Shown here: in pieces, positions 12,060 to 60,750 of the stretch
Layout of the letters: each line of letters opens with the position of its first letter
How positions within the stretch are numbered: the first letter of the stretch is position 1
Source of the DNA: a bacterium
GTDB taxonomy: Bacteria; Bdellovibrionota_C; UBA2361; RFPC01
DNA length: 64,000 bases
Direction of reading: 5' to 3'
Assembly (NCBI GenBank): GCA_030431715.1
Contig: JAUIIO010000004.1
Location: 977 to 64,976 of the forward strand
Program-made: the position numbers and the translations under genes
Notes under the pieces: generated by a model
What the model was told of the DNA's origin: nothing
The model's input: only the letters and a program-made list of their open reading frames with translations
The model's database searches: none

Positions 12060-12080
12060 AAGAGATGTCTCACAAAGAAA

Positions 12081-12144: not shown

Positions 12145-12151
12145 AAAAAAT

Positions 12152-44238: not shown

Positions 44239-45018
44239 ATGCCTATACAAGGCTTAAGGAGCGATAGCTCCCTGATAAGAAATGGTTTTGGAACAAATAG
44301 GGCTGAGAGTAATCTCCGTCAATCATTTACTGTGAGTTCCAATAGAGATAGCGACTCCGTTAGTGTTTCCTCAAGGCCGGGAAGAGAGTCTGGGTCTGTG
44401 CTCGATGTGAGTCTTGCTAAATCTAATGCTGAGATAGCCTCCAATGCAGCAGAGAGCATTATTTCGCTCCGCGCCGATCAACTTGAGCTGGCAGAGCAAG
44501 CTGCAAATTCTTCAAATCCAACAACGAGATCTGATCTTCAGAGTGAAATTGAAACACTTCAGGCTGAGATTGAGCGTATAGCAAGCGAAGCGGTCGATCA
44601 AAATGGCAATAGCGTTCTTACCGGATCGGGTACAACTTTATCTAATGGTGAGGTCGTACAGCTTGCTGATATTTCGGCGATCCGCGACGATCCGAACGTT
44701 GATGTCAGCTCTGAAAGTGGAGCTGACGATGCTGTTGAGTCACTTACGGCCACTTTGCAAAGTAGTAGAGTGTACCGCGAATCTTCATCGAGTTCTCTAG
44801 GAAGAGCCGAGAGCGTTCTCGCAACTGAGCTTGCCACAGAGCGAACGACGCGGAGTGAGGATAACGATGCTATTGCAGAGATTAGTGAAGCAGAGCAGGT
44901 CGCAAAAGATATCTCTGCATCTCTTTTACAGGAATTTGGGAACACTGAGGATCCAGCTACATCACTTACCTCCACTCTTCTCTCCGGTGAATTAAACGCC
45001 GATGTTCTGCTAGACTAA
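44239..45018 (+). CDS. short divergent flagellin-family protein (D0-D1 only, 259 aa), orphan
   Basis: ELAEQAANSSNPTTRSDLQSEIETLQAEIERIASEAVDQNGNSVLTGSGT aligns to the flagellin D1 block (B. subtilis Hag ELVVQAGNTGTQDKATDLQSIQDEISALTDEIDGISNRTEFNGKKLLDGT). The C-terminal region AVESLTATLQSSRV...RAESVL...SEDNDAIAEISEAEQ resembles the flagellin C-terminal helix (ESRIRDVDMAKEMSEF...). No other flagellar genes nearby. Confidence 0.55.
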   Translation: MPIQGLRSDSSLIRNGFGTNRAESNLRQSFTVSSNRDSDSVSVSSRPGRESGSVLDVSLAKSNAEIASNAAESIISLRADQLELAEQAANSSNPTTRSDLQSEIETLQAEIERIASEAVDQNGNSVLTGSGTTLSNGEVVQLADISAIRDDPNVDVSSESGADDAVESLTATLQSSRVYRESSSSSLGRAESVLATELATERTTRSEDNDAIAEISEAEQVAKDISASLLQEFGNTEDPATSLTSTLLSGELNADVLLD

Positions 45019-45626
45019 TCTATTTCCGTTTGCTTGTGGAGCACGAGCAAAATTCTCTTTGCCTCCACCATATGCATCAAGTGGTTTATCTTCTCTTCAA
45101 AAGTTGATTTTTCAGATGGGTATTTGCCAACCTTGTTAAGCCGTTCAGAAACAATCGAAGGATAAAAAGAAAAATCTGCTGAGCTATTCTGATCAAGCTC
45201 TGACCAGAGATTTTCTGTTACCATGACCCGGTTCTTATCATGAGAGGATATATCAGATTTTAAAAGAAGCGCGCTTGTTTGCTCAAACATCTGGCGCAAA
45301 TGCCACATAGTCGTACCAAGTGTTTTGTTTAGCTGATCGCGACGTATTGGATTTGCAATTGAATCTTCAGATGAGAAGAGTCCAAGTGACTCAAGTTCAA
45401 TAAGATCTCTTTGGTAAGCATCCTGCGCTGCTTGAAGTTTCTCAGGAGAAGCAGATTTGACGTCGCGTAGGAGTGTAAGGATTCCATAAGAGCATGCTGA
45501 AAGAGCAACTATTGCTGTTCCGTTATTAAGAAACATTCTTCTACTTAGAGAAACTTTCTCAGCATGGGAGTGGTCCTCCGCTACATTTGCGAAGATTTCG
45601 TGACTTGGAGAGTTTCTTTCAGGCAT
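45015..45626 (-). CDS. hypothetical protein with Tat-like signal (SRRMFLNNGTAIVALSAC)
   Basis: ORF convergent on the flagellin-like gene with a 4-nt overlap. Twin-arginine-like motif after a ~25-aa N-terminal extension. Confidence 0.4.
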   Translation of the reverse strand: MPERNSPSHEIFANVAEDHSHAEKVSLSRRMFLNNGTAIVALSACSYGILTLLRDVKSASPEKLQAAQDAYQRDLIELESLGLFSSEDSIANPIRRDQLNKTLGTTMWHLRQMFEQTSALLLKSDISSHDKNRVMVTENLWSELDQNSSADFSFYPSIVSERLNKVGKYPSEKSTFEEKINHLMHMVEAKRILLVLHKQTEID

Positions 45627-45747: not shown

Positions 45748-47544
45748 ATGCCAAATACCGAATTATTCAAACCAGAATCGTATATCGCTGCCCCGGGAGT
45801 AGACCCGGCCGAAGCACATTTTCAAGAGGCACTACCTGCGCAGAGGCGTAATGGAGACTCACATATATATACGACCCCTCCGCAGTATGAGTCACTCCTT
45901 GATCCGAAGTCTCAGATCGTACGCGACTATCGAATGGCTTCGTCTTATTCTTACAATCCGAGAGCTATCAAAGATCTACGGGTAGATGCTGGCACACTTC
46001 TTTCGTACATCCGCTCTATGGGTTCAAACGATCCGAGCAGTGAATCCTTTATGGAGATAGCTCGCGGACTTGCTTTTAGACGTACTCCACACGACTACAA
46101 AAAAGGTCCGGCCATTGATGTTTACACCGTTCCCGAGCTGAAACAAAAGGTTATTGCTGAGTATGCAAGCAACCTAGCTTACATGCGCCTGATGACTATG
46201 CCTTCTGTACTGGAAGGAAGGCTTGAGATGTTACGGCGTGGGTCGCCCGGACGCTACCCGAGACGAAATCAGTACTTTGATAATCACATTGCTAATAAAA
46301 CTGCCATAACGTGGAAAAACATAGGCTGGGGTATACCAGAGCGCGATCTTGAGCATAAGGTGGATGACGAGAGTACCACATTTGCTCGTTCTCAGGGAAT
46401 GTGGTCACACATATACTCTGCTTCAGATAGCCAAATGGTCGCATCCCCGGTATGTGGACCTTCACACCCCGATCTCTTAAGCCCACTTGCAATGGCGGAT
46501 CTTGCTCTTTGTGGATCGTTCTCTTTTGTTCCTTGCGACGCAATCTATTCTAGTGGGAAAGGCCCAAATGGCGCAGGGCTCAAGGCACAAATTGAATTTG
46601 TAAAAGCGACTCAAAATATTCTTAAGAACCATCCGCTTATTCTCAATCACCCTTATGGTAATCACGTGCTTTCAGATGGCAAAACGGTGAGTAGGCACTT
46701 GTACGATGAAGCGATTAAACGAATCGGTGTGACGTTAAAACCACATCCTACGCAAGATTCTGTTGAAAGAGCGAAGCGACTCTATAATGAATGCGGTGTT
46801 ACTCTCTTTCGTGTATTTGATCCACGAGATACTCAGATGCTTCCTCGTACTATTGAGGCTGTATCAGAGCTTGAAGCAAGGACCGTTGAAGAAGTTAGAG
46901 AAGTTCAGCCTGACCAAATTATACCGATAGCTAGCCAAGTAACTGGCGTAAATAGCGCGATGAGGTGTCGTGACGCTGGAGCAAGAGTTATTGTGCTTAA
47001 CATCGGTGAAGGTGGCTTCTGTAGTACTTCGTCTGGCACTGGCATGATTCCATCAAACCTGCTCACCTTTTATCGAATTCAACGAGAGCTCCATGAAGAT
47101 ACGGGCATAATCGTAGATGGAGGTGTTGGAAACACATGGGTGTTAGCGCTAGCTCTAGGTGCAACTGCTACCATGAAGCACGCGTCTCTTATAGGTGGAA
47201 CGGTACAGCAAGTTCCTATTTTCACAGCAATTGACGAAGGAGGTTCTTACTACAAGCTCGCTTCCGGTGAAGCCGCAAAACGTACGAAGTTCCTCAGCAA
47301 CAGTCAGACAGACCTCGTTGGCGACCCACGAAATGTTGAGGGAGTTGATGGAGCTCAGGAGTTTTTAGTAGATGGAATGAGCATGAGTATTGGTAAGCGA
47401 CTAGACCAAAACTTCTATACACCAGCGGCCAAGCAACTTGTGTTCTGCGGCACAAGCAACCTTGCCGCTTACATGGACTGGTTAGATCCAGTCATTTGGG
47501 AACCGACTTCTGAAGCAATGATTATGGCAGCGCCACATATATAG
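45748..47544 (+). CDS. IMP dehydrogenase / GMP reductase-family TIM-barrel protein with ~330-aa uncharacterised N-terminal region
   Basis: The C-terminal 270 aa align to the IMPDH catalytic half. VIVLNIGEGGFCSTSSGTGM matches the IGPGSICTT active-site Cys loop. IVDGGVGNTWVLALALGATATMKHASLIGG matches [27 protein letters not shown]. No CBS pair seen. Confidence 0.6.
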   Translation: MPNTELFKPESYIAAPGVDPAEAHFQEALPAQRRNGDSHIYTTPPQYESLLDPKSQIVRDYRMASSYSYNPRAIKDLRVDAGTLLSYIRSMGSNDPSSESFMEIARGLAFRRTPHDYKKGPAIDVYTVPELKQKVIAEYASNLAYMRLMTMPSVLEGRLEMLRRGSPGRYPRRNQYFDNHIANKTAITWKNIGWGIPERDLEHKVDDESTTFARSQGMWSHIYSASDSQMVASPVCGPSHPDLLSPLAMADLALCGSFSFVPCDAIYSSGKGPNGAGLKAQIEFVKATQNILKNHPLILNHPYGNHVLSDGKTVSRHLYDEAIKRIGVTLKPHPTQDSVERAKRLYNECGVTLFRVFDPRDTQMLPRTIEAVSELEARTVEEVREVQPDQIIPIASQVTGVNSAMRCRDAGARVIVLNIGEGGFCSTSSGTGMIPSNLLTFYRIQRELHEDTGIIVDGGVGNTWVLALALGATATMKHASLIGGTVQQVPIFTAIDEGGSYYKLASGEAAKRTKFLSNSQTDLVGDPRNVEGVDGAQEFLVDGMSMSIGKRLDQNFYTPAAKQLVFCGTSNLAAYMDWLDPVIWEPTSEAMIMAAPHI

Positions 47545-47550
47545 TTTTAT

Positions 47551-48279
47551 TTGGAGAAAAAGATGGCAAATTTAGCGGATACAAGATCGTCAAGACAAGA
47601 GGTGCTAACCGGACCCATTGAGCTACCATGTGGTCGAGGGAGCGTGAGTGTTTCTGAGATGTCAACCACCTCGAAGTTTAAGCTTAAAGAATATAGCGCG
47701 GCGGGACTCCACCTCGATCCTCTCTCTCTTGAGGTCGCAGAAATGCAGCCCACAGAGGATATGAACAAGCACACCGCAAATGGGGATTTTGAATACGTAG
47801 CTCGTACTGTAGCTGCCGAGAAGGCAGAGGCTGCATTCTATAAGGTCAATCGACCAGTTTTAGTAGAAGACACGTCTCTTTTTCTCTGTGCTCCTAAACT
47901 TCGAGTTCTTGCGGGGCCCCTTATAAAACAGTGGACATACGCTTCTCCTGAGCTTCAGAAAAACGCCCTAGATATTCTTACTCTGGCGGCAACGCTTGAA
48001 AATGACCGCAGAGCTGAGGCTTATTGTGTGCTGGCTGTCTCAAATGGGCGTGAAACCAACACTTGGGTTGGCAAAGTTACGGGTATGATCTCCGACAATC
48101 CAAGGGGAGGTAGTAATTTTGGTTGGGACTGCATTTTTATGCCTGAAGCTGCTTCTCAGCGTGTTGACTTCGATCAGCCTTCAATAAGAACTTGGGCTGA
48201 GATGAGTTTTGAGGAGAAGATAAACATCTTTCCTTTCAGGGGTAAAGCAGTAGATGAGCTTAGAAAGTCAGTTCTTTAA
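47551..48279 (+). CDS. Ham1/RdgB-like non-canonical purine NTP pyrophosphatase (ITPase)-family protein
   Basis: AYCVLAVSNGRETNTWVGKVTGMISDNPRGGSNFGWDCIFMPEAASQRVDFDQPSIRTWAEMSFEEKINIFPFRGKAVDEL aligns to E. coli RdgB RFHCVLVYLRH...[50 protein letters not shown]. Starts 7 nt after the IMPDH-like gene. Confidence 0.6.
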   Translation: MEKKMANLADTRSSRQEVLTGPIELPCGRGSVSVSEMSTTSKFKLKEYSAAGLHLDPLSLEVAEMQPTEDMNKHTANGDFEYVARTVAAEKAEAAFYKVNRPVLVEDTSLFLCAPKLRVLAGPLIKQWTYASPELQKNALDILTLAATLENDRRAEAYCVLAVSNGRETNTWVGKVTGMISDNPRGGSNFGWDCIFMPEAASQRVDFDQPSIRTWAEMSFEEKINIFPFRGKAVDELRKSVL

Positions 48280-48284: not shown

Positions 48285-48764
48285 CTATCCCATAAGCTCT
48301 GGCTTGTGCGAGCCTGAGTTCGCGGCAAATGTAAGGACTGAGTTACAAGCAAGCTCTAGACAGAGCAGATCACGGGGCCCGAGCTTGATTCTTCTTCTTT
48401 CTTCTTCAGAACGCCCGGTTACAAGTCGGAGCCAGCATGTTTCTTCACCGGAAAGTTTTCCTTGAGCGCCGCGTGGCTTGTCACGGTAGAGTTTCACGAG
48501 AGTATCACCGTCTTGTCCCTGTGCGCCTTGAAGAATTACGTTTTCGTCAAGTGATTCAACACCGTAAAGAAATGCGCGAGTAGTTGCCCACAAGCCACCT
48601 ACGGCATCAAGCGGAAGTACAAGGTTCAACATGCCAGCTGAATCCTTCTCCTCTACGCCATTTTTCATTGGAACGTAATAGAGTCTTAAGCCGTTATTCT
48701 CGGGAATAAGCTGCAAACGGCCAAAAGATTTAGAAATCGTAAAAGTAACACCACCTAAATACAT
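48285..48764 (-). CDS. hypothetical protein (159 aa)
   Basis: ORF. Weak resemblance to a pyridoxamine-5'-phosphate-oxidase-like split barrel, unverified. Confidence 0.4.
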   Translation of the reverse strand: MYLGGVTFTISKSFGRLQLIPENNGLRLYYVPMKNGVEEKDSAGMLNLVLPLDAVGGLWATTRAFLYGVESLDENVILQGAQGQDGDTLVKLYRDKPRGAQGKLSGEETCWLRLVTGRSEEERRRIKLGPRDLLCLELACNSVLTFAANSGSHKPELMG

Positions 48765-48985: not shown

Positions 48986-50266
48986 TTACTTTGCGCCGAG
49001 GTCGAGTGTCGCAAACTGAGGGCAATAGTCCGGAGCGAAACGCTGGGCCCTGTTAATTCGCATAGTTACGCCCTGAAATTCCCAGACACGATCTTTCTCA
49101 GGTGTGACTTCAAAGACTCGGCCTTTGGTGTCTTCAGAGATGAGAGTGTTTCCATTTGGTAATCGAGTGGCAGCTCCTGCCACAGAGCTACTAAACTTTT
49201 TACCGACGTCATAGACCCAAGTAAGCTTCTTATCCGGCGGGGCAATCTCAAGAATACGAGACTCTTTCATTGAGCGACCGTTATCAAAGAGGAGGATATC
49301 ACCTGCCCCGTTAAGGCCCTTTGGTATCATGTACGGGTCATGGCCTCCGCTTATGCCGCCTTTGTAATCACCGCGATAGCTCCACACAACTTTCTTCGTG
49401 TCCCTATCGATAATCATCGCTGTCCACCAGTTACGAGCGAAGACTAAAATATTACCCGGCTTAAAACGGGTATCTCCAGCATCATACCATTTGTTTTCTG
49501 GGAGTGGTGACGCTGTGTTCATATGGGTCCAATCAAGTCGTCTCTTACCATCGATCTTACGCGATCGTAATTCGCTGCACGGTCGTGGTCCGCACGAATT
49601 AAGATCAAGATGCTCGTGAGCTGCCCACGACCATACGATCTCTTTTTCAGGCGAGATCTCAACTACAACATCTGAGCGGATATTGGTCCCACGAATTTTG
49701 GGGTCTTTGATCTTTTCTTTCAGAATGGCCGGAACATCTGTTAAGTACAGCGTAAGAATATTGCCATTTGGAAGTTTTCGGATGTCGTGATGAACGGGCT
49801 CTGGGAGTTCGTATTCCCAGACGACGTCCCCTTCCCAACTATACTCGCGAATAATGTTACGCATGCTTGCCCACGGTTCATGATCAATTCCCCACTTTGA
49901 ACCGTGAATGACTAACAGGTTGCCGTTCGGCAAGAGTCGCGCACGATCGGCGTCAACTGGCCATTTGTGTACGGTCTCTCCTTTCATATTTAAGAGCAGT
50001 ACTTCTGCCGTTCCACTTGTAGGATAGATGGTAAAGCCCGGAAATGCCTTGTCGGTGTAAATGGTAAGCCCCTTTCCGGTGTTCCCCGAGGAGGCGTCAG
50101 AGGCGCTCTTTTTTTTAGCTTTTGACGTTACTTCATTTTGTTTTAGGAGGGCTTTCTTAGAGGACGTGGGTTGCTGTACCTCTCGTAAAACAAGGAAGAG
50201 CATCGCACCAATTGCCAGCGCAATTATAAGTAGTCCTTCTGTGATGGTTCTGCTACGTGACTTCAT
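48986..50266 (-). CDS. secreted/anchored beta-propeller protein, arylsulfotransferase (ASST)-like, paralog A
   Basis: N-terminal TM/signal. Repeated LLPNGNLLV, LPNGNILTL, RLPNGNTLIS and FDNGR blades characteristic of ASST-type propellers. About 50% identical to the divergent neighbour. Confidence 0.5.
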   Translation of the reverse strand: MKSRSRTITEGLLIIALAIGAMLFLVLREVQQPTSSKKALLKQNEVTSKAKKKSASDASSGNTGKGLTIYTDKAFPGFTIYPTSGTAEVLLLNMKGETVHKWPVDADRARLLPNGNLLVIHGSKWGIDHEPWASMRNIIREYSWEGDVVWEYELPEPVHHDIRKLPNGNILTLYLTDVPAILKEKIKDPKIRGTNIRSDVVVEISPEKEIVWSWAAHEHLDLNSCGPRPCSELRSRKIDGKRRLDWTHMNTASPLPENKWYDAGDTRFKPGNILVFARNWWTAMIIDRDTKKVVWSYRGDYKGGISGGHDPYMIPKGLNGAGDILLFDNGRSMKESRILEIAPPDKKLTWVYDVGKKFSSSVAGAATRLPNGNTLISEDTKGRVFEVTPEKDRVWEFQGVTMRINRAQRFAPDYCPQFATLDLGAK

Positions 50267-50446: not shown

Positions 50447-51703
50447 ATGAACCGTACCCTTAAACTTGCTCTTGAGCTTCTCACATGCCTTTTATTGGCC
50501 GCTGCCCTCCTTTACTTTGTTCCCTCTCAAAGTATAAAGAGCGCCCCTGAAATACCTGCGGCGCATAAAGTGCCTCAGAAGACAGAAGAGAGAGCGAAGA
50601 CTCAGCCCAAAGAAGCCACTAAGGGTCATCTCGTAAGCTCTGATAAGAGAGCGTGGCCCGGTTTTACACTTATGCCTGAATCAGGCTCAGCCACGGTAAA
50701 GCTGGTGAATATGTCAGGAGACATAGTTCACAAGTGGAATTTTGATGCCGCCAGAGCCAGATTGCTTCCGAACTGTAATCTGTTGGTAGTACACGGTACG
50801 AAATGGGGATGGGGCACTGAGTACTGGAGCGAACAGAGAAAGTACGTCAGGGAATTTGATTGGGACGGGCAGGTTGTTTGGGAGTATACAGTACCAGGGC
50901 CCGCGCACCACGATGTTCACAGGCTTAAGAACGGTAATACACTCTTACAGTACCGCTCAATCGTACCTGAAGAGTTTCGGCGTACAATTAAGGACGAAAA
51001 AAAGCGAAATGCCCGGATTCGAACAGATATCATACGTGAAGTTACGCCTGAGGGTGAAATCGAATGGGAATGGGCTTCGCATGAGCATCTTGATTTAAAC
51101 TCATGTGGTGCTCACCCCTGTCATAAGACCTCAAAGAGTATTGCGAGTGGGAAGCGTACCTTTGATTGGACTCATAACAATACGGTAAACCCCTTACCGC
51201 AAAATAAGTGGTTTACAAGTGGTGATACTCGATTTAAGCCGGGCAATTTGCTGCTCATGCCTAGAAGCTGGTCTCAAAGCCTGTTGGTAAGTAAAGATAG
51301 TGGTGCAGTTGTGTGGGACTATCACGGTGACTTTGAAGGAGGGCTCTCAGGTGGTCATGAGGTGCATATGATTCCTGAAGGATTTCCGGGAGCCGGTAAT
51401 ATCCTTGTCTTTGATAACGGGAGAACAAGGCAGCGCTCAGCTGTACTCGAAATAAATCCTACTACAAAAGAGGTCGTATGGTCTTACGAGAATGGGAAAT
51501 CGTTCTTTAGTCAGGCCGCAGGTTCTGTGCAGCGGTTCCCGGGTGGAAACACGCTAATCTCTGAGGATGTCCCCGGGAGGGTGTTTGAAGTTACTCCTGA
51601 TAAAGAGGTTGTCTGGAGCTATCAGGCGCCTATGAGGACAGCTAGAGCACATCGATATGCCCCTGATCATTGCGCTAAGCTATCGGAATTAGACCTTTTT
51701 TAG
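50447..51703 (+). CDS. secreted/anchored beta-propeller protein, ASST-like, paralog B
   Basis: Same architecture and motifs as paralog A (LLPNCNLLVVHGTKWG, LKNGNTLLQ, RFPGGNTLISEDVPGRVFEVTPDKEVVWSY). Divergently transcribed from it. Confidence 0.5.
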   Translation: MNRTLKLALELLTCLLLAAALLYFVPSQSIKSAPEIPAAHKVPQKTEERAKTQPKEATKGHLVSSDKRAWPGFTLMPESGSATVKLVNMSGDIVHKWNFDAARARLLPNCNLLVVHGTKWGWGTEYWSEQRKYVREFDWDGQVVWEYTVPGPAHHDVHRLKNGNTLLQYRSIVPEEFRRTIKDEKKRNARIRTDIIREVTPEGEIEWEWASHEHLDLNSCGAHPCHKTSKSIASGKRTFDWTHNNTVNPLPQNKWFTSGDTRFKPGNLLLMPRSWSQSLLVSKDSGAVVWDYHGDFEGGLSGGHEVHMIPEGFPGAGNILVFDNGRTRQRSAVLEINPTTKEVVWSYENGKSFFSQAAGSVQRFPGGNTLISEDVPGRVFEVTPDKEVVWSYQAPMRTARAHRYAPDHCAKLSELDLF

Positions 51704-52176: not shown

Positions 52177-52764
52177 ATGTCACAGAGTGTAGACCCTCAC
52201 GACAAGCAGGTGTTTACCACTGGTGATGTAGCGAAGTTTACCCACACTGCCCCGCGAACAGTTAGTAAATGGGTAGATAGCGGCTTACTTAGCGGCTACC
52301 GCGTTCCGGGCTCACAAGATAGACGCATACCACGCGATCCCCTACTCGATTTTTTAATTGAGCATAATATCCCGCTCGGTCGTCTTCAGAAGAAAGTCCT
52401 CTTTCTTTCAACTGACGAAGCGCTCATAGATTCCCTTACTGAGCGTTGTAGGCCTTTAAAGCATCCTCCTGTTACGAATATAAAGCAGAGTTCCTTCGGT
52501 GCGGGCATGGCCTTTCAAACGTTAAAGCCAGATTGTTTCGTTATTGATCTGGGAACGGTGTCCGTTTCTGTGGCTGAAACTATTCTTGTAGCGTTCGGGA
52601 ATTCTCAGAATCCCCCCTACTCAATTGCTCTTCTTCCAGATGGCATTACCGCAGAAGAGCTTGATGATACTTTGCAAGTAGATCAAATATTTGAACGCCC
52701 CTTTGATCCAGAGCTACTGAGCGAAACAATCCTTTCGCAAGTTGTCGTCAGCTCTGATTTTTAG
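52177..52764 (+). CDS. excisionase/AlpA-type HTH fused to an atypical receiver (REC-like) domain
   Basis: N-terminus TTGDVAKFTHTAPRTVSKWVDSGLLSGYRVPGSQDRRIPRDPLLDFL matches the excisionase-family HTH_17 pattern. The C-terminal 120 aa show REC topology (VLFLSTDE..., PDCFVIDLGT with an Asp at the phospho-acceptor position, SIALLPDG, and ERPF in place of the conserved KPF). Confidence 0.55.
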   Translation: MSQSVDPHDKQVFTTGDVAKFTHTAPRTVSKWVDSGLLSGYRVPGSQDRRIPRDPLLDFLIEHNIPLGRLQKKVLFLSTDEALIDSLTERCRPLKHPPVTNIKQSSFGAGMAFQTLKPDCFVIDLGTVSVSVAETILVAFGNSQNPPYSIALLPDGITAEELDDTLQVDQIFERPFDPELLSETILSQVVVSSDF

Positions 52765-54944
52765 AGCTTGACCTTATTTTTCAGATTTGTGCTGGTTGTG
52801 CTGCTACGTTTCTTTTTCTTCGCATCCTTCTCAGCGTTTTCTTCTTCACTCACAGGTGCCTTAAAAGCATTCACAACGCCTCTACGGAAGCGAGCTCCAA
52901 GGCCTTCTGAGGCGCCAAGTTTAAATGGGCCCGAATCTTCTTTCGCCTGCTGACTTGCCTGTGGGGCGCTCTCTTGTGCAGGTTTTGCGAGAGAGAAGCC
53001 AGTTGATGAGGTCGATCCACTTGAAGCTGAGTGCTGCGAAGTTGTTTGAGCATGTTGTGGCTGTTGTTGAGGAGGAGGTGGTGGTGGCGCTTTTCTTAGC
53101 GGCTTCTTGTCTGGGGCAAAGCGAGGAGAGGTTTCCTGCTGCTCCTGATTTAAGATTCTCTCATCTACCCAGCTTGCAAGCCCAATACCGTCTTTTTCAA
53201 ATTTCTCAAGGTGAGTGATAAACTCTCTGCCCTCCCAAGAATCGGGAAGGTCGGCGTTAAACCAAAAGGCACGACCTTTTACAATTCGGCCATCGCCAGT
53301 ATCAAACCAAGCGAGACCTTTCTCCGCTGACATTTCGTGTTTGAGTTCGTCAGCGCTTACCAGATCTTCTTCATCCTCAGAGATATTAACACTCTGCGAT
53401 TCTCGGTTCATTGTGGAACCTGCCGTGGTCATGCCGGCTAATCCCGGAGTAGAGATCCCGGCAGCTACAGATTTCTTGGTGGTAGCGACTTTACCAAACC
53501 ACTTGGCCATATCTTCAGCAGTACGGTTATCACCGACTCGCATCATGACTTTTAAGTTTACGTTCGCCATTACCCGTTCATAGAATGCTTCACTCAAGCC
53601 AACGGACTGATCGGTAAGACCACCAGTTGATTGCGCTCCAAAGATAAGAGCAAAACGACCTTTTCGCGCGAGTTCAAAAAGGTTCGCCCACGTTGGGCCA
53701 AAGGTTGATGCTCCCTCATCGATAACGACAGGGTGTGGATCTTCAAGATGAAGGTGACGTGAAGAAGTTATCTCACCAATTGATACTTCGAGATCTTCGC
53801 GGAAGAGCTTCACCATTCGAGCCGCACTCTCAGCTTCCTCAAGACGAGGCAGCATAAAGTAAATAATCTTTCCACGCATAATGGCATCTGTAAGAACAAG
53901 ATCGGTGTATTCCGTACAGAAAACCGACCCCATTTCACTCCCCGAAATAGCATGTAGCTCAGAAGAGATACCACGCAGGTTGTCAGTAATCCTAGCGGTA
54001 TCAAGTGATCCTTTAGCCGTACGGTAACTTGAAGCGAGGTGGCCAAGCTCAACCATCGCTTTCTTAGCTCCTATTTTATGGAGCATATTTCGTAGCTGAG
54101 GGTATGCGAGCTTAAAAGCCGAGAGCGCAACAGCTATATCCTGTATAGTCCATGTAACTCCAAAGCTCTCCATGGCACGGACAAGGCGATAGATAGAATC
54201 AGCAGCGAGACGATCGTAGTGCTTGGTTGTGCTCTGGTCGGAAGTAGGCGGAAGACCTGCACGAAGAACCTTCCGAGCTTTTACATCAGCTCTCTGGTTT
54301 GTCATTACAAAGTTGTAAGCATGAAGCGGATCAAAGGGGTCTACAACAACGAGGTCTTCTATACGACCAGTTATAAGCGCCATAAGAATAATATGCGCAA
54401 GTGTAGCCGAATCACGCTTGGCATCGATAAAGGTACAACCACTGGCTCGTCCACGAGCCATCTGTTGAAACATAAGAGATTCAAGCCAGAGAGTTTTCCC
54501 CACCCCGGTCTTTGCAAATACGCACGCGTGGCTACAGAGATCCTCATCGCCAATCCACAGAGGAGCACCGGTATCTAGCTCAAAGCCTACTAGATAACGG
54601 TCTATCATGTTTTTGCCGCGGGCCTGCGCTTCCTGAAGTGCTTCAGTAAAGCAGTCTCTCTCAGGAGGAGATCCGAGTACTTTCTTTCCGCCTCGAAAAG
54701 CGCTCTCTGAAGAACGTTCGCGTTCTAGCCAAAACTGCTCGGCTAAGATCTTACCTTGTTGAAGAAAGGAGAATGCTGGCAGGCCAGCCAGAGCGGCAAG
54801 AAGCGTTGGATCCAGTCCGGCAGCTAGCGGTGAGGCCGCAACCCCGAGCGCACCGAGAGAGTAGAGAGAGCTTGAAAGAAGCGCCTTTTTTCGCTCTTCC
54901 TCCCTCATAAACTCAAAATTTGAAGACTTATATTGCCGTGCCAT
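52761..54944 (-). CDS. traD: type IV coupling protein (TraD/TrwB/VirD4 family) with C-terminal P/Q/S-rich disordered tail
   Basis: Walker A HACVFAKTGVGKT. VIDEGASTFGP...ARKGRFALIFGAQSTGGLTD aligns to TrwB LFIDELASL...GRKAGLRVVAGLQSTSQLDD. N-terminal TM helices. C-terminal PPPPPQQQPQHAQTTSQHSASSGSTSS tail. Confidence 0.85.
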   Translation of the reverse strand: MARQYKSSNFEFMREEERKKALLSSSLYSLGALGVAASPLAAGLDPTLLAALAGLPAFSFLQQGKILAEQFWLERERSSESAFRGGKKVLGSPPERDCFTEALQEAQARGKNMIDRYLVGFELDTGAPLWIGDEDLCSHACVFAKTGVGKTLWLESLMFQQMARGRASGCTFIDAKRDSATLAHIILMALITGRIEDLVVVDPFDPLHAYNFVMTNQRADVKARKVLRAGLPPTSDQSTTKHYDRLAADSIYRLVRAMESFGVTWTIQDIAVALSAFKLAYPQLRNMLHKIGAKKAMVELGHLASSYRTAKGSLDTARITDNLRGISSELHAISGSEMGSVFCTEYTDLVLTDAIMRGKIIYFMLPRLEEAESAARMVKLFREDLEVSIGEITSSRHLHLEDPHPVVIDEGASTFGPTWANLFELARKGRFALIFGAQSTGGLTDQSVGLSEAFYERVMANVNLKVMMRVGDNRTAEDMAKWFGKVATTKKSVAAGISTPGLAGMTTAGSTMNRESQSVNISEDEEDLVSADELKHEMSAEKGLAWFDTGDGRIVKGRAFWFNADLPDSWEGREFITHLEKFEKDGIGLASWVDERILNQEQQETSPRFAPDKKPLRKAPPPPPPQQQPQHAQTTSQHSASSGSTSSTGFSLAKPAQESAPQASQQAKEDSGPFKLGASEGLGARFRRGVVNAFKAPVSEEENAEKDAKKKKRSSTTSTNLKNKVKL

Positions 54945-54961
54945 ACGTTCCTTTGTCTGCC

Positions 54962-56962
54962 TTAACGAAATGCCATCTGAATATCATCTTGGAGATCATC
55001 AGTGATACCGTGCAGTAAATTATTAAAATGTTCTTGAGTTTCAGCCATATTAGCAAATGAAACAGAAGAAAATTCGTCTGTCCATCCACGCCCCAGTCTT
55101 TCAGCAATCCGAGAGCCTCGAAGTGGAACAATACTGCTCTGACCGGCAAGAGCGAGTTCATTTTGAGCGATGCCACTCGTTGGATTATGGAGCACTGCGA
55201 AGATAACAGAACTTTCTGGTACCGTGTAATCCCCTACTCTCCGTGCTAACCAACCATAGGTGTAAAGTACTATTCGAAACGCTGACCACTGTCTGAGATC
55301 TCTTTCGTCAAGTTGATGTAGCTCTGCGAGAGTCTGTCTCTCGTCTTTTGTGAGCGGAGCGAAAATCTTTTCGTATTCTGGAACACCACTTTTGATAGAG
55401 TCTGACATGGACTCGGCTTCAAGAGCGAGCTTTTGTTGCTCGGTGTACACATATTGGGCGAGCTCGGTGAGGCGTTTAAAATATTCTGCCGGTATGACTT
55501 TGCGCGCCACCTGCATAAGAGCCGTTACCGGCAAAAGGAGAAGGCCACCCGGAGTAATGTGGATCTGGTCTGGAAACTGAGAATCGAGTTCATGAACGGC
55601 AACGGTAAAAGCCTGTTTCCATAATTCGTGGCATTCATAGGTTAGAGCAAAAAGTTCGAGATCGTGAGTGGTATAAAGAATTTTAGCAGGTTGTTCGAGT
55701 AAAAGTTCAACCCATTGTCTGAGAGCTCGACTCTCAAGCGAGAGATCTGTCGCGAAACGTACAGGACCAAATACACTACTTCTTGAGGCATATATGAGGG
55801 CACGACGAATCGTTTTTCTTTGCTCAAAATCATATTCTCTTGCAAACGATGGAATAGAATGGAGGATGGCTCTTGCAGAAAGCTGTGGATAATTTGATTT
55901 TTGTATCCACCTTCCCCCTTCATCAGCATAACTTAAAACCTTGCCAGCCTGATAGGCCAGCAGCGTTGTAAAGATCATCTGCGGCGAGAGTGAGGCGATC
56001 GATTTCCGGAAAGATTCAGGAAGGCTCTGATGCATTGCCCGGTGCATTATATCCATATAGCTAGAAATGCTAAATGGTTCGGGGAGCTTCTCATGAGCAA
56101 GAATTCCCGCTGGTCCTTCAGCGCCAGAGCGATAACGATTATAGAGATCATGTGCTCGGGTAAGTAGTAAGTGAGACACGTCGGCAAGGGAGGCGTCTCC
56201 TGTAGGTGGCACCGTTGTCATTGACGGCGGGGCGGCAAATGCAGGTATATGATTCGCAGCAAGAAGAGCAGCGCAGAGTGTTACGTTCGTTTCATTCGCA
56301 GCCCCAGTCTTTTCAAGAAACTGCCCAAGTGAGGAACTCATGACTTCATCTCTTCCAACGAGTGCAGGACAGGCAAGTCCTACGACTTGAAAGTCCGGGG
56401 CTCCAAGAGAGTTTAGGTTTCTAAGACCAGCTTGGATTCCACTAAAATATGAACGACCGTTGCCTGTTTGCCCCAGAACGTCATCAGTGTTCTCATAAGG
56501 TTGATAGCGGCGCCTAGCGAGTAAGATGGCCAGAAGTGAAGTAAAGAGCCAGAGTCTTCCGGCGGCAAGTACGAGAAATGAAACTCGTAAAAACATAAAT
56601 TTGAAAGAGCCGAGCAGCCAGCTAAAGCCACCTCGACCGAGTGCCGCGAGATAAATTGATTCTGAAAAGTTATTGAAGGCGCGGACCTCTCCTATGGTAC
56701 CGTGTGCCTCAAGCCACGCACGGTAATCACGTTGCGTGACAACGAGCTCATGTAAGACAGGATTTCGCGATCTGATAAGTTGATTTTCAACTGCTGAGAA
56801 ATTTATTGAGGCTGGGCGAAAGGGAAGAATTGCCAGTGAGAGAATAAAGAGGACATACCCGGCTAAGAACACCAAGAACACAGGCCATAAAAACCTCGTC
56901 CAAAAACGTCGCTGGAGCCTAGCCAGCTCCTGAGTATGTGTACGTGATATTGAATCCGACAC
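54962..56962 (-). CDS. hypothetical membrane protein (666 aa) of the conjugation module
   Basis: Lies 18 nt upstream of the coupling-protein gene on the same strand. Two N-terminal TM regions. No Walker or relaxase motif confidently recognised. A LLTRAHDLY (H-D) segment is noted but unverified. Confidence 0.45.
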   Translation of the reverse strand: MSDSISRTHTQELARLQRRFWTRFLWPVFLVFLAGYVLFILSLAILPFRPASINFSAVENQLIRSRNPVLHELVVTQRDYRAWLEAHGTIGEVRAFNNFSESIYLAALGRGGFSWLLGSFKFMFLRVSFLVLAAGRLWLFTSLLAILLARRRYQPYENTDDVLGQTGNGRSYFSGIQAGLRNLNSLGAPDFQVVGLACPALVGRDEVMSSSLGQFLEKTGAANETNVTLCAALLAANHIPAFAAPPSMTTVPPTGDASLADVSHLLLTRAHDLYNRYRSGAEGPAGILAHEKLPEPFSISSYMDIMHRAMHQSLPESFRKSIASLSPQMIFTTLLAYQAGKVLSYADEGGRWIQKSNYPQLSARAILHSIPSFAREYDFEQRKTIRRALIYASRSSVFGPVRFATDLSLESRALRQWVELLLEQPAKILYTTHDLELFALTYECHELWKQAFTVAVHELDSQFPDQIHITPGGLLLLPVTALMQVARKVIPAEYFKRLTELAQYVYTEQQKLALEAESMSDSIKSGVPEYEKIFAPLTKDERQTLAELHQLDERDLRQWSAFRIVLYTYGWLARRVGDYTVPESSVIFAVLHNPTSGIAQNELALAGQSSIVPLRGSRIAERLGRGWTDEFSSVSFANMAETQEHFNNLLHGITDDLQDDIQMAFR

Positions 56963-57227
56963 GTTTTAAAACCTCATAAACAAAGGGATACTGTAGCATG
57001 TTATAGGCGTTTTCAACATAAGAGTAACGCAAGGAGTGCCGGCAATTTGTAAGTCTTTGTCCCCTGCCCAGTCCCCAGACGAAATTCATGCCGTATTTTG
57101 TGAAAATAATTCGCAGAAGAACGCTTTTCTAAGTACCTAAAAACACTAAATTTCGAGAATCTAGACGTTTTTCTGTGCGTGTAGGGTAACCATTTATTAA
57201 CCGCTACCCATAACAGTAGTGAAAGAC

Positions 57228-57246
57228 ATTTCGGAACGCCCGAAAT
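57228..57246. promoter_or_regulatory. inverted repeat atttcgg aacgc ccgaaat in the divergent promoter region of the T4SS operon
   Basis: Read directly. Lies 20-40 nt upstream of the first T4SS-operon gene, inside a 302-nt AT-rich gap between divergent conjugation operons. Confidence 0.35.
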
Positions 57247-57264
57247 TTAACTTGTAGAGGTTTT

Positions 57265-57636
57265 ATGATGAATACGAGCCGTTTCTTAAAGGGAGCCACG
57301 CTTAGCCTGATATGTCTGCTAACACTCCATAGCAGTTGCTTTGCTCAGGAGAGTAGTTCAGCAGTTCCAGTAGCTCGCGCAGAAGGTGCCACTCTTTCCA
57401 GAGCCGTAGGTCACTACGCCAGAGCACGAACGCTTCTTGTTGCCGCAATAAGAGAATTTGATCAAGCAAATCAGATGGTTAATCCAGATGCGCTTCTCGA
57501 CGCGGATGCATGGCGCAAATCACTCCTTGAACGCACAGAAGATCTTGAACGGATTCTCGATCCACAGCCACGGGTATCGGCTGCTGGTGTCAGATTTAAT
57601 GAAGAACCTTCAATGCTAGGTGAAGCAAGGAAGTGA
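57265..57636 (+). CDS. small secreted protein, RAQPRD-family-like, first gene of the T4SS operon
   Basis: Signal peptide ATLSLICLLTLHSSCFAQE. Internal ILDPQPRVSAAG resembles the RAQPRD signature of small ICE proteins that precede the T4SS genes in ICEclc/PFGI-1-type elements. SD AGAGG present. Confidence 0.4.
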   Translation: MMNTSRFLKGATLSLICLLTLHSSCFAQESSSAVPVARAEGATLSRAVGHYARARTLLVAAIREFDQANQMVNPDALLDADAWRKSLLERTEDLERILDPQPRVSAAGVRFNEEPSMLGEARK

Positions 57637-57667
57637 TGAATGCGGAAAAGTACTATAGGAGTACAGG

Positions 57668-58066
57668 ATGGATAATGGCGATGTGATACCGGGACTTGGT
57701 GAGAAGTGGAGCTTTATGGGCGCCACCGCCATGGAATGGATCTCAGGAGCCAGTATGGGGATCCTTATGCAAGAGTTTGTCTTTGGGGGAGGCTCCAAGA
57801 CCGTTCCTCTCTTGCTTGCTGTACTTCTGGCCACCACCTTCGGATTGGCGGGAGCACGTAAGAAGTTTCCGGATGAAGAAAAAGGTGTCGCAAACGCTCT
57901 GATGGTAAAGATGGGGGTCTTTCCACCACGAATGCCAGCGCCAGCGGAACTCCAACCGATCTGGAGCGGGGCGCCACTAAGAGAGTTGGATTCGGAAAGA
58001 GAATTTCGAGAGCTACGGCTTGATGAAATGTTTGAATTAGATAGCACGCTCGATGAAGAGCAATAA
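57668..58066 (+). CDS. TraL-like small inner-membrane T4SS protein
   Basis: 132 aa. SD ATAGGAG. WSFMGATAMEWISGASMGILMQ and a second hydrophobic helix resemble the F TraL / PFL_4702-family architecture. Position immediately before the TraE-like gene. Confidence 0.45.
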   Translation: MDNGDVIPGLGEKWSFMGATAMEWISGASMGILMQEFVFGGGSKTVPLLLAVLLATTFGLAGARKKFPDEEKGVANALMVKMGVFPPRMPAPAELQPIWSGAPLRELDSEREFRELRLDEMFELDSTLDEEQ

Positions 58067-58103
58067 GTTTTGTTAGCGGTTTTATCTTTAAAGGGTTTAG
58101 AAA

Positions 58104-58742
58104 ATGAATGTAGCCGATCTCATTAAGAGTACTGCAGGAGCAGAAACAAGAGAAAAAGCAGATACATTTAAGATCTGGGAAAACTATCGTGAACAGGCCA
58201 CGATGTGGCGAATTTTAGCGCTTCTTCAACTGGCGACCACCCCTCTCCTTCTTATCCTGTGTATTTTTATCTACTCAACCAGAAGTGTCACCTTACATGT
58301 TCCGGCGAAACCACTTCCCGGCCACTACCGCACAACTGAGATTCCCAAAAGTCTGTTTGTATCAAAAGCTACTGAGTTCATAAATCTTGTAGCCTCTTAT
58401 CAGCCTCGAACAGCGGAGAGACAATTTCATGCTGCTGCAGAGATGGTTGATGGCTCGTATCTTGAAAAGTTTGAGGAAGAGTCTCTCGGGCTAGAGCTTC
58501 GTGCCATTGAGAATACAGCGAGAACTCAGATCTATTTTATCGACCCGACACGCACCAACGTTGAATACAAGAGTGGTCATGTGTTTGTCACCTTTTATGG
58601 CGCACGAGCAAAGTACATCGCTGGACGCGAGATGCCATCAGTTGAAACCAAGTTTGTAGTGACGATGAAAACAGTACCACGCCAGAACGTAAATCGTTAC
58701 GGGATAGTGATTACAGATTTTGCAACGGAAAACATTGCATAA
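58104..58742 (+). CDS. TraE-like (VirB8-like) T4SS protein
   Basis: 212 aa. Single N-terminal TM helix RILALLQLATTPLLLILCIFIY, then a periplasmic domain of the size and spacing of F TraE. Confidence 0.55.
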   Translation: MNVADLIKSTAGAETREKADTFKIWENYREQATMWRILALLQLATTPLLLILCIFIYSTRSVTLHVPAKPLPGHYRTTEIPKSLFVSKATEFINLVASYQPRTAERQFHAAAEMVDGSYLEKFEEESLGLELRAIENTARTQIYFIDPTRTNVEYKSGHVFVTFYGARAKYIAGREMPSVETKFVVTMKTVPRQNVNRYGIVITDFATENIA

Positions 58743-58773
58743 GGGGATTTTAGGAGATTTGAGGAGCAGTACT

Positions 58774-59562
58774 ATGAAACAACAAAAACTTACAATAGGT
58801 AGCATTCTTGTCGGATGTCTCTTGCTTGTCTGTCAGAGCGCATTCGCGAGAGATGTGGATTATAACGATGCTGAGATATCGGTACGTGTTAAGCCGGGTG
58901 AGCCAACTCAAATAGAATTTCCAGGGGAAGTTTCAGGTGGTTTTCGTAAGAAGCTCTCATCTCTTTCCATAGATAAAAAAGGAGATGACCTCATCCTCTT
59001 CTCAAACGAACTTCTCACCCCAGAAGGAGAAGCTATTATCGTTCGGCTTAAAGACGGAAGAAATTACTCTATTCGTGTGAAGCGCTCAACTGAAGAGGCG
59101 CCGCGTGATGACGTTGTCCGAATTTATGATACCAGAGCATCGATCATTAGCAGCGAAGAAGAGCTTCCACCGTATGCTTCACCAAACGTGAAAAAAGCGA
59201 GTTCGAATCAGGTCAGCGGTTTTATGCGCGAGATGATTCTGGCAATGGAGTTTGGAAAGAATGGAATTCCGGGTTACCGCGTAAGTGAACGATTTAAGGG
59301 AGAAACCGTACTTGATGATGGTACGCTTCGAGCAACCATTGAACGAATATACATGGGGCCAAACTACTGGGGGTACGTTATTGAAGCTACCAATCTTCTC
59401 GATGAGACCAGACAGTTAAATCCAGCTACGTTTCGTCTCGATGGGACACGAGCGATATCGCTCAATAACTACGAGCTCTCTCCCCGTCCGCTCAATATTG
59501 AGCAGCAGATTGCAAAGAAGCATAAAGCGAAAGTGTACGTGATTACGAAAGCGAAGAGGTAA
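58774..59562 (+). CDS. TraK-like (secretin N0 / VirB9-like) T4SS protein
   Basis: Start re-set to ATG 58774-58776 (MKQQKLTIGSILVGCLLLVCQSAFA signal peptide, SD GAGGAG upstream). DAEISVRVKPGEPTQIEFPGEV...IILFSNELL pattern as in F TraK. Confidence 0.6.
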   Translation: MKQQKLTIGSILVGCLLLVCQSAFARDVDYNDAEISVRVKPGEPTQIEFPGEVSGGFRKKLSSLSIDKKGDDLILFSNELLTPEGEAIIVRLKDGRNYSIRVKRSTEEAPRDDVVRIYDTRASIISSEEELPPYASPNVKKASSNQVSGFMREMILAMEFGKNGIPGYRVSERFKGETVLDDGTLRATIERIYMGPNYWGYVIEATNLLDETRQLNPATFRLDGTRAISLNNYELSPRPLNIEQQIAKKHKAKVYVITKAKR

Positions 59563-59568
59563 GTAACG

Positions 59569-60750
59569 ATGAGTATGAAGCAGAGACTTGAAGATACCCT
59601 CTTACTCTTACGTGAGAATAGGAAGGCACAGTTCGTAGCCATATGTATTATGGGAGCAATCGCCTTTCTGATTGTAGGGGGTGGATCCAACCCACGACGA
59701 GCTCAGCAACCCGTTTCTCAGCAAGCGGATCTCCCGATCGATACCGCATCTGGAGCTAAGCGAGCAGAGCAGGCATATGAGGATTATACAACTTCACTTC
59801 GCCAGACAACGAAAGATATCAAAATACAGAATAAGCAGCTTCAAGAAGAGCTTGCTGAAATGAGAGAGCGCAGAGAAGAAGATCAACGCAAAGTCGCTGA
59901 GATTATGAAAGTGCTTATTCAGCGTGTTGAAGCCAACGAGAAATCAGCAGCGCCTCGTCAGGGAGGAGATGCCGATCCCGTTATTTACGCCGATGATGAT
60001 GGTATTGCCGATCCTGAGACAGAAGAGCTTACAAGCTTTGGAGACATTGATGACAATCAGGTTGTGCCACCACCACCGCCTGCACCAAATCTCGATGCCT
60101 ACATTTCACCAGCAGACTCTGTCCGAGTACAACTTCTTGCCGGGGTAAATGCTCCGACAGATGGAACGCCGTATCCGGTTATCTTCAAGCTGCTCAGTGA
60201 TATTCGCGGACCAGATGGGTCAGCTCTTCCGCTGGGAGAAGCAAGGCTTATCGCCGCAGCTCAAGGATCGCTTACTGATGCTCGTGCGCTCTTTCGACTC
60301 ACAACCCTTAGTATGAGATTCCCTGATGGCTCGAGAAGAGACGTTGAAGTGGATGGTTGGATTGTTGGTGAGGACGGTATCCGAGGAATGGAAGGTCAGC
60401 TCATCGACCCACTGGGAAAAGCGCTCGGTGCAGCATTTGTAACTGGAACGCTTAGTGGACTTGGTCAGGGAATCGCGGGAGCTCAGACAACCACAACGAT
60501 TACCAACACCGGACAACCCTATTCCTATGTAGACGGGGACACGCTGAGCTTTGCGCTTGGACGTGGACTTCAGGGAGCGTCTAGTGAATGGAGTGAGATT
60601 ATCCGTGAACGGCTACAACAGCTTGTGCCGGTTGTAAAAGTTTTTTCAGGAAGAGAAGCAACAGCAGTATTTGCACGACCTGTTCGTATAGATGGTCTGT
60701 ACGAGATGCTCACCGTTGCTGAAACGGACATATACGGAACACTAGATTAG
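59569..60750 (+). CDS. TraB-like (VirB10 family) T4SS protein
   Basis: N-terminal TM helix, coiled coil, proline-rich linker VVPPPPPAPNLD, and a C-terminal beta-rich domain. This is the architecture typical of VirB10/TraB. Confidence 0.6.
   Translation: MSMKQRLEDTLLLLRENRKAQFVAICIMGAIAFLIVGGGSNPRRAQQPVSQQADLPIDTASGAKRAEQAYEDYTTSLRQTTKDIKIQNKQLQEELAEMRERREEDQRKVAEIMKVLIQRVEANEKSAAPRQGGDADPVIYADDDGIADPETEELTSFGDIDDNQVVPPPPPAPNLDAYISPADSVRVQLLAGVNAPTDGTPYPVIFKLLSDIRGPDGSALPLGEARLIAAAQGSLTDARALFRLTTLSMRFPDGSRRDVEVDGWIVGEDGIRGMEGQLIDPLGKALGAAFVTGTLSGLGQGIAGAQTTTTITNTGQPYSYVDGDTLSFALGRGLQGASSEWSEIIRERLQQLVPVVKVFSGREATAVFARPVRIDGLYEMLTVAETDIYGTLD

Follow-up and report, generated by a model that had tools for sequence, protein, structure and literature searches.

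We report here that a 64,000-nucleotide stretch of DNA from a bacterium of the Bdellovibrionota_C lineage (contig JAUIIO010000004.1 of GenBank assembly GCA_030431715.1; the whole stretch is referred to as the window) carries two neighbouring genes, X and ham1, whose products are likely to act together on purine nucleotides. X (the name is used for both gene and protein), as judged from its sequence, belongs to a rare and coherent third clade of the superfamily made up of inosine monophosphate (IMP) dehydrogenase (IMPDH) and guanosine monophosphate (GMP) reductase (GMPR); we call this the GEA clade. Ham1, the product of the downstream partner gene, is of the ITPA type, the non-canonical purine nucleoside triphosphate pyrophosphatases. 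The strongest result of the analysis is the link between the two: X and Ham1 are encoded by adjacent or divergent genes, or are fused, in about 20 independent loci, a recurrence that goes far beyond chance. We favour, with a probability of roughly 0.6, the reading that X and Ham1 form a two-gene operon for purine-nucleotide salvage and house-cleaning. What is new is a third IMPDH/GMPR clade that lacks the catalytic Arg-Tyr dyad of IMPDH and that, at most of the loci studied, is linked with Ham1; this does not amount to a new class of system. The elements of the locus are as follows.

45748..47544, plus strand: X gene, 598 amino acids, stop codon at 47542-47544; GEA clade of the IMPDH/GMPR superfamily.
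47553..47556, plus strand: GGAG, Shine-Dalgarno-like, read from the sequence, 6 nucleotides upstream of the ATG at 47563.
47563..48279, plus strand: Ham1 gene, 238 amino acids from the ATG at 47563; Pfam Ham1p_like; ITPA-type non-canonical purine nucleoside triphosphate pyrophosphatase.

The original prediction, made from the letters of the window, had located open reading frames (ORFs) at 45748-47544 (598 amino acids) and 47551-48279 (242 amino acids), both on the plus strand, and both stand as located. Note that the second of these, as called by a program, opens with a TTG codon at 47551, which is unlikely to be the start of Ham1. Because GGAG lies 6 nucleotides before it and because it agrees with the N-termini of homologs, the ATG at 47563 is probably the start instead. 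The gap between the two genes is 6 nucleotides when counted to the TTG and, as is likelier, 18 nucleotides when counted to the ATG, so that the close spacing that had been described was borne out but the overlap was not. Such spacing would fit a single operon. (Scans of the X-Ham1 region for promoters and terminators gave scores no better than those of shuffled sequence.)

A search with Pfam matched the IMPDH family (PF00478) to residues 371-535 of X at 32.4 bits, against a cut-off of 25.6 (positions 127-291 of the 345 in the profile), and found neither a CBS domain in X nor any match in its N-domain. The initial description of an IMPDH-type protein without CBS domains, accompanied by a Ham1-type partner that matches Ham1p_like, is consistent with these findings, and the strings on which it had drawn (IGEGGFCSTSSG, IVDGGVGN and ATMKHASLIGG) are all present in the translation of X. 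The accompanying division of the protein into a C-terminal barrel of 270 amino acids and an unrecognised N-terminal region of about 330 amino acids had to be redrawn. In particular, hhalign placed residues 181-598 of X on positions 4-342 of the 350 in a CBS-less IMPDH/GMPR-like profile (probability 99.9%, E 4.6e-31), and Foldseek superposed the AlphaFold model of X on whole CBS-deleted IMPDH catalytic domains with template-modelling scores (TM-scores) of 0.75-0.81, normalised to targets of about 345 residues. The model itself is a single confident body, with a predicted local distance difference test score (pLDDT) of 91.7 and a predicted TM-score (pTM) of 0.91. (It was computed from an alignment of 120 sequences, which replaced an alignment of only 3 sequences that had given a pLDDT of 37.) When compared with solved structures, the family profile matched IMPDH at E 1e-26. 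X consists of a family-specific helical N-domain and a complete (beta/alpha)8 barrel in which a short helical insert replaces the CBS pair, with the following parts.

45748..45864, plus strand: variable N-terminus (residues 1-39), pLDDT 42-66 over the first 40 residues, unconserved among homologs.
45865..46287, plus strand: helical N-domain (residues 40-180), family-specific, with confident helices in the AlphaFold model.
46288..46539, plus strand: first strands and helices of the barrel (residues 181-264), from hhalign, column comparison and a weak match in a profile search of the PDB.
46540..46722, plus strand: helical insert of about 60 amino acids (residues 265-325) at the position of the IMPDH CBS (Bateman) pair, a gap in the hhalign alignment.
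46723..47541, plus strand: rest of the barrel to the IMPDH-like C-terminal tail, ..AAPHI (residues 326-598), from the profile search, hhalign and Foldseek.

Residues 1-39 are probably disordered, as the model suggests. Within the N-domain, residues from about 100 to 180 are kept family-wide and include the motifs TP(Y/H)D..KG and (T)HP..LE; a profile of this domain found no homolog among solved structures (best E 0.39). In the first part of the barrel, hhalign and the column comparison identify AITWKNIGWGIPER as the counterpart of the N-terminal IMPDH motif LTFDDVLL.P, and GPSHPDL and SFVPCD of X align with SA.MDTV and GILHR, respectively. Beyond the insert, whose helices in the AlphaFold model span residues 276-293, 296-299 and 314-324, RIGVTLKP is the counterpart of the first IMPDH strand after the CBS site. 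Thus, of the N-terminal 330 residues or so, 181-330 resolve as barrel, and for these the alternative that the region is merely the first half of a standard barrel proved right; it fails for residues 1-180, whose helical domain gave no match in solved structures or in Pfam.

Two segments of the barrel hold the residues that set X apart from both known enzymes.

46999..47037, plus strand: catalytic Cys loop NIGEGGFCSTSSG (residues 418-430), containing Cys425, which aligns with the catalytic Cys of IMPDH, and Thr427.
47263..47343, plus strand: active-site flap SGEAAKRTKFLSNSQTDLVGDPRNVEG (residues 506-532), containing Glu508, Ala509, Lys514 and Glu531 and lacking the Arg-Tyr dyad.

IMPDH and GMPR have in common a catalytic Cys-Thr-Glu set (the Glu being Glu431 in the T. 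foetus numbering); the Arg-Tyr dyad, carried on a mobile flap, is a water activator specific to IMPDH, and GMPR has a truncated flap and no dyad (Min et al., PMC2525682). We compared the clade with canonical enzymes within the single alignment of 120 sequences, in which Cys425 is invariant and Thr427 and Glu531 are nearly so. The clade retains the catalytic Cys, the Thr two residues after it, the equivalent of IMPDH Glu431, the ribose-binding Asp457-Gly-Gly and an IMPDH-like C-terminal tail (..PHH). In the same alignment, no member of the clade has a conserved Arg-Tyr in the flap, whose length is fixed at 20-21 residues and in which position 514 is a conserved Lys (or Arg). The purine-contacting GMGS becomes an invariant GEA, with Glu508 at the position of the Met, and the phosphate-binding Ser of GSIC in the Cys loop gives way to Gly (Gly423 of X, where the loop reads GGFC). 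Among 33 aligned family members, Gly422, Cys425, Gly459, Gly471, Glu508, Ala509 and Gly532 are invariant, and Ser239, Pro262, Asp264, Pro296, Gly327, Thr329, Lys331, Arg355, Thr427, Asn437, Gly507, Lys514, Glu531 and Phe566 are nearly so. Neighbour-joining on the barrel columns ordered the sequences into three groups: an IMPDH-type group with GMG, Arg-Tyr and a flap of 22-27 residues; a GMPR-like group with GMA or GSA, no dyad and a flap of about 15 residues; and one contiguous GEA block. On sequence grounds, then, the GEA clade matches neither the IMPDH nor the GMPR definition of PMC2525682.

Curated models do not cover the clade. Neither X nor Ham1 came near any NCBIfam equivalog cut-off for IMPDH, GMPR or RdgB: for X, TIGR01302 (IMPDH) gave 21.8 bits against 481.5, GMP_reduct_1 17.2 against 492 and GMPRedGuaB1 22.3 against 675, and for Ham1, TIGR00042 gave 70.6 bits against 145. 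Existing annotations call family members 'IMP dehydrogenase' or 'XTP/dITP diphosphohydrolase'. An exhaustive HMMER search of 1.84 billion representatives returned 181 matches at E<=1e-3, 57 at E<=1e-10 and 24 at E<=1e-30, and the GEA clade amounts to about 60 clusters among the 1.8 billion representatives. (A word-indexed protein search returned only 3 proteins, with a single sequence and with a 33-sequence profile alike, because its candidate list was swamped; only exhaustive HMMER recovered the family.) A genome scan with patterns from the closest subfamily found no relatives, and a metagenome scan contributed only two further loci. The loci come mostly from metagenome-assembled genomes (MAGs) of Bdellovibrionota/Bdellovibrionales, with others from MAGs labelled Gammaproteobacteria, a label that is doubtful for two of them (L014 and L015) because the related locus L034 has sortase and LysM genes nearby. 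Literature searches found no description of the clade, of its N-domain, or of a link or fusion between Ham1 and IMPDH.

Ham1 is recognised by Pfam Ham1p_like (PF01725) at 87.9 bits, against a cut-off of 22.5, and its best matches among solved structures are inosine triphosphate pyrophosphatases (ITPases), with 8ji1 at the top. The protein retains the catalytic VEDTSL (with its Asp), the base-binding FGWD and the Lys, Glu and Arg positions, and the catalytic Asp and FGWD are kept in nearly all partner or fused Ham1 domains of the family. Because the catalytic Asp is retained, Ham1 is probably an active ITPase.

The same Asp bears on the suggestion in the original prediction of a role in defence or anti-defence. 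HAM1-like proteins are the sensors of deoxyinosine triphosphate (dITP) in the Kongming system (10.1101/2024.12.20.629578), the Kongming protein KomB is among the structures matched by Ham1 (34.8 bits), and the window has conjugation genes about 4.5 kb from the pair. The pair might accordingly be pictured as Kongming-like, with Ham1 as dITP sensor and X as effector, or as a mobile pair that depletes or detoxifies nucleotides; either we regard as highly improbable. In defensive HAM1 proteins the catalytic Asp is invariably replaced by His, and a SIR2 protein is closely associated with them (10.1101/2024.12.20.629578), whereas Ham1 keeps the Asp, and no SIR2 protein was found among the neighbours of the window pair or of the related loci. 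PADLOC gave no matches, and no recognisable defence genes occur near family members. Note that the negative result with PADLOC is weak evidence because PADLOC-DB (2023) predates Kongming, and the features of Kongming were therefore tested directly. Searches of 2.9 million viral contigs yielded no true family members, only generic matches (28-34% identity over 90-190 amino acids), and none was found in plasmid DNA or in six-frame translations of plasmid and phage records. The relatives sit among ribosomal, tRNA-synthetase and purine-salvage genes. On the strength of the kept Asp, the lack of a SIR2 gene nearby and the metabolic contexts, a Kongming-like sensor-effector pair was rejected; apparently, this is no new defence system.

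The association of X with Ham1 takes three forms. In the window and in L001, L002, L003, L033, L014, L015 and L034, the Ham1 gene directly follows X on the same strand; in L009, L011, L012 and L013/L032 it is divergent and immediately upstream; and in L004/L005, L006, L007, L008 and L030, as well as in representatives P0009, P0010, P0011, P0013, P0014 and P0021, Ham1 and X form a single protein with Ham1 at the N-terminal end. At one further locus (L036) Ham1 lies 2.3 kb from X, next to a phosphoribosyltransferase gene (hpt). A more distant barrel clade (P0047 and P0069/L037) likewise carries an N-terminal Ham1 fusion, and the association therefore reaches beyond the GEA clade. (In P0069, at 1642-3918 of L037, the features of this distant clade are a Cys loop that reads GHGGGRQCTS, the motif GSA and a flap of 28 residues.) The pair first seen in a single window is thus conserved, and the proposal that it forms a dedicated unit acting on purine nucleotides, most likely those of inosine, xanthosine or guanosine, is supported by adjacency, by divergent pairing, by the fusions and by the purine-salvage operons of a sister lineage, described below.

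Two other genes were seen beside family members. In L003, which carries a near relative of the window pair, a convergent gene on the minus strand (11984-13558) comes directly after the Ham1 gene; its product is a 524-residue dehydrogenase dependent on flavin mononucleotide (PF01070, 215 bits), extended at the N-terminus by about 135 amino acids. In L011, an ammonium transporter gene on the minus strand (9696-11078) is convergent with, and directly after, the family gene. The latter arrangement occurs in one Bdellovibrionota locus only; it could matter if X releases or uses ammonia.

The sister subfamily, whose members are 41-45% identical among themselves and about 30% identical to the X of the window, places the gene among those of purine salvage. 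The order HD-add-guaA-X-rdgB is found in L034 and L015, and its guaA-X-rdgB core on a short contig (L014). L035 has hpt-guaA-X-pnp with purA adjoining and convergent, and L036 has add-guaB-guaA-X followed by hpt-ham1. X thus directly follows guaA in five loci (L014, L015, L034, L035 and L036); in two of these, no other guaB lies within 7-8 kb. In L010, pnp-add-guaB-guaA is divergent from X, and a phosphoribosyltransferase gene adjoins X; a gene of this kind also lies close to the X-Ham1 pair of L012. The Bdellovibrionota loci have as neighbours the str operon (rpsL-rpsG-fusA-tuf) and genes for methionyl-tRNA synthetase, RsmG, an Hda-like protein, an ammonium transporter, the futalosine pathway to menaquinone and a tRNA synthetase. 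Across about 20 loci no neighbour is common beyond Ham1 and standard purine-salvage genes. (At 8004-9536 of L015, X is split into two ORFs, 8004-9032 and 9138-9536; its 89%-identical copy in L034 is intact, and the split X is a pseudogene or an assembly error. Both loci also encode a class I lysyl-tRNA synthetase fused to a B3_4 domain, at 2348-4681 in L034 and 2316-4649 in L015.)

These contexts speak to two further readings. In one, the pair or the fusion would be secreted and would act as an effector inside cells of the prey or host, depleting or rewiring their purine nucleotides, in keeping with the concentration of the family in Bdellovibrionota and small-genome MAGs and with a type IV secretion/conjugation cluster near the pair in the window. 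We consider this the least probable reading of all: neither X nor Ham1 has a visible N-terminal signal peptide, the housekeeping and purine-salvage operons with guaA, add, pnp and hpt indicate a cytoplasmic metabolic setting, and the secretion genes of the window are F-type transfer genes (TraE, TraK, TrbI and TraD-like). A secreted effector was rejected on account of the missing signal peptide and the metabolic context. According to the other reading, which had also been put forward initially, the pair would make a purine-derived secondary metabolite or a modified nucleotide. The clade-specific Glu508, Lys514 and Gly423 might permit a non-standard substrate, but since the roughly 20 loci share no conserved biosynthetic neighbour we judge this very unlikely, and a secondary-metabolite pathway was rejected for the same reason.

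We reasoned about the chemistry of the favoured reading, purine salvage and house-cleaning, as follows. Ham1 would hydrolyse deaminated purine triphosphates, namely inosine triphosphate (ITP) or its deoxy form and xanthosine triphosphate (XTP), to the monophosphate and pyrophosphate. X would bind a purine nucleoside (6-oxopurine) monophosphate, the C2 of which would be attacked by Cys425 to give a covalent intermediate of the E-XMP* type common to the superfamily (the enzyme adduct of xanthosine monophosphate, XMP), with Thr427 and Glu531 serving as proton relay. Because the Arg-Tyr dyad is absent, the activation of water may fall to the 'ancestral' Thr-Glu route, to the clade-specific Glu508 and Lys514, or to both. 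The reaction that we judge most likely is the oxidation of IMP to XMP with nicotinamide adenine dinucleotide (phosphate), NAD(P)+, which would consume the product of the ITPase and supply GuaA. The physiological role may be to rebalance and sanitise scavenged purine pools in predatory or host-dependent bacteria. The substrates and cofactor of X, the direction of its reaction and its role are proposed here from fold, conserved residues and gene context.

We give an IMPDH-like reaction for X somewhat less than an even chance. In its favour, the C-terminal tail and the scores of hidden Markov models (HMMs) place X nearer to IMPDH, as does the length of the flap; the fusion would join consecutive steps, from ITP to IMP to XMP; and X directly follows guaA. 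Several observations weigh against it or against the wider reading. IMPDH needs the dyad for fast hydrolysis of E-XMP*, and its absence from the clade argues against efficient IMPDH activity. In L036 and L010, X shares its operon or cluster with a canonical guaB, so that X is not simply 'the guaB' there and may catalyse something else. With Glu508 in place of the Met of GMGS and Gly in place of the Ser of GSIC, the substrate may not be IMP. No Ham1 gene lies within reach of X in three family loci (L010, L035 and the 3.4-kb contig L016), and the window has no other purine gene near the pair.

Some of the same observations point instead to a reaction of the GMPR type, in which X, having arisen independently of GuaC, would convert GMP and NADPH to IMP and ammonia and, with Ham1, would steer deaminated nucleotides, and those of the guanine side, into the pool of IMP from which adenosine monophosphate (AMP) is made. 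A Cys-Thr-Glu set that lacks the Arg-Tyr dyad is precisely what characterises GMPR (PMC2525682). Beside a canonical guaB (L036 and L010) such an enzyme would supply the missing interconversion instead of repeating a step, purA adjoins the operon in L035, and in mycobacterial GuaB1 there is precedent for an IMPDH-like protein that is a GMP reductase (PMC13249884). We regard this reaction as a serious rival, though the less likely of the two. The flap of X is untruncated (20 residues versus about 15 in the GMPR-like sequences of the same alignment), the tail and HMM scores lie on the IMPDH side, and GM(S/A)S is replaced by GEA. Moreover, co-transcription directly after guaA, in the five loci named above, would set up a futile GMP cycle, and the ITPase fusion would unite two makers of the same product rather than successive steps. 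What the IMPDH-like and GMPR-like estimates leave over we assign to other purine-monophosphate chemistry, all of it within the purine-salvage reading.

L036 is awkward for both reactions, because an X co-transcribed with guaB and guaA would be either redundant or part of a futile cycle. Taken together with the invariant Glu508 and the nearly invariant Lys514, this dilemma leaves room for a third, new reaction. The GEA clade might, in our tentative and rather sceptical estimate, constitute a third reaction class, neither IMPDH nor GMPR, in which Glu508 and Lys514 redirect the Cys-C2 intermediate. Candidates would be a direct interconversion of IMP and GMP with ammonia, or the processing of (d)IMP or (d)XMP delivered by the ITPase. 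If so, X and the coupled Ham1 would provide a channelled route from triphosphate to monophosphate to converted monophosphate, used by nucleotide-scavenging Bdellovibrionota predators and by small-genome, host-dependent bacteria to rebalance their purine pools. As a variant, the dyad-less 'ancestral' IMPDH that Min et al. put forward in 2008 (PMC2525682) could survive in this clade.

IMPDH and GMPR are a textbook pair with one fold and one covalent intermediate, in which flap residues and cofactor dynamics set the reaction. Experiments on the GEA clade would reveal what determines the outcome in this fold and would permit a direct test of the idea that a Thr-Glu relay alone served the ancestral enzyme (PMC2525682). 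The repeated ITPase fusion acts as a 'Rosetta stone' link that would connect house-cleaning of deaminated triphosphates with interconversion of purine monophosphates. Current annotation may mislead metabolic reconstruction of Bdellovibrionota and of small-genome MAGs.

The surroundings of the pair in the window include the following features.

44239-45018, plus strand: 259-residue Ser/Glu-rich protein of unassigned function, upstream of the pair.
45015-45626, minus strand: ORF of 203 amino acids flanking the pair, product without assignment.
48285-48764, minus strand: ORF of 159 amino acids flanking the pair, product without assignment.
48986-50266, minus strand, and 50447-51703, plus strand: two paralogous, divergent genes resembling arylsulfotransferase (ASST), each product with an N-terminal hydrophobic segment.
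52177-60750: F-type conjugation cluster, with HTH_17, a TraD/TraG-like coupling protein (with a Pro/Gln-rich tail) and TraE-, TraK- and TrbI-like proteins.

The ASST-like and conjugation genes were correctly placed near the pair in the original prediction (the transfer cluster proper begins at about 52.7 kb); the neighbour at 44239-45018, which it had called flagellin-like, gave no Pfam flagellin match. On its other flank the pair adjoins a chromosomal stretch with genes for arginyl-tRNA synthetase (ArgRS), fatty-acid oxidation, polysaccharide synthesis and phosphoenolpyruvate carboxykinase, the last identified from its sequence. Because base composition shows no step or shift at the pair, no tRNA gene lies in the window and no neighbour is shared with other loci, horizontal acquisition cannot be shown, and the description of the pair as horizontally acquired cargo is not supported; no integrase or tRNA boundary was seen in the 64 kb. 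Rfam and riboswitch scans, at a permissive threshold for the window region and at the gathering threshold for 18 related loci, returned only tRNAs. Among 5.8 billion proteins, the best non-self match of the ArgRS of the window (13038-15134, plus strand) is only 43% identical, and the lineage from which the DNA comes is therefore very poorly sampled; the named relatives of this ArgRS are from Oligoflexia and 'Proteobacteria' MAGs, at about 40%.

Among known systems, X most resembles GuaB (EC 1.1.1.205), with which it shares the whole (beta/alpha)8 catalytic domain, the Cys loop, the Thr at +2, the Glu431 equivalent, the Asp-Gly-Gly, the flap length and the ..PH tail; sister-lineage X genes moreover lie next to guaA, as guaB does in guaBA operons. 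X differs from GuaB in lacking the Arg-Tyr dyad, in having GEA for GMGS and Gly for the phosphate-binding Ser, and in carrying a helical insert of about 60 amino acids in place of the CBS pair and an extra helical N-domain of about 140 amino acids. (A CBS, or Bateman, pair within the barrel is typical of GuaB but not universal.) With the GMP reductases GuaC and GuaB1, X has in common the Cys-Thr-Glu set and the missing dyad, whereas its untruncated flap, its GEA for GM(S/A)S and its extra N-domain set it apart, and it clusters away from the GMPR-like sequences. Ham1 shares with ITPA and RdgB the Pfam domain, the catalytic Asp and the FGWD motif, and ITPases are its best structure matches. Canonical rdgB is a stand-alone housekeeping gene; Ham1, in contrast, is divergent, has an N-terminal extension of about 35 amino acids and is partnered with, or fused to, a GEA-clade barrel. 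The chlamydial guaBA-add operon for purine salvage (PMC3091639) has the same gene set and the same logic, from adenosine to guanylate, as the sister-lineage add-guaA-X-rdgB and add-guaB-guaA-X arrangements, in which X takes or joins the guaB slot and an ITPase gene is added; the window has only the X-Ham1 core. Finally, Kongming KomB-KomC shares with X-Ham1 the tight coupling, in some cases by fusion, of a HAM1-family protein with an NAD-using enzyme (as X presumably is). KomB has His for Asp, a SIR2 NADase as partner (KomC) and a place in defence islands or mobile elements, whereas the pair described here keeps the Asp, has an IMPDH-like barrel as partner and is found in metabolic contexts.

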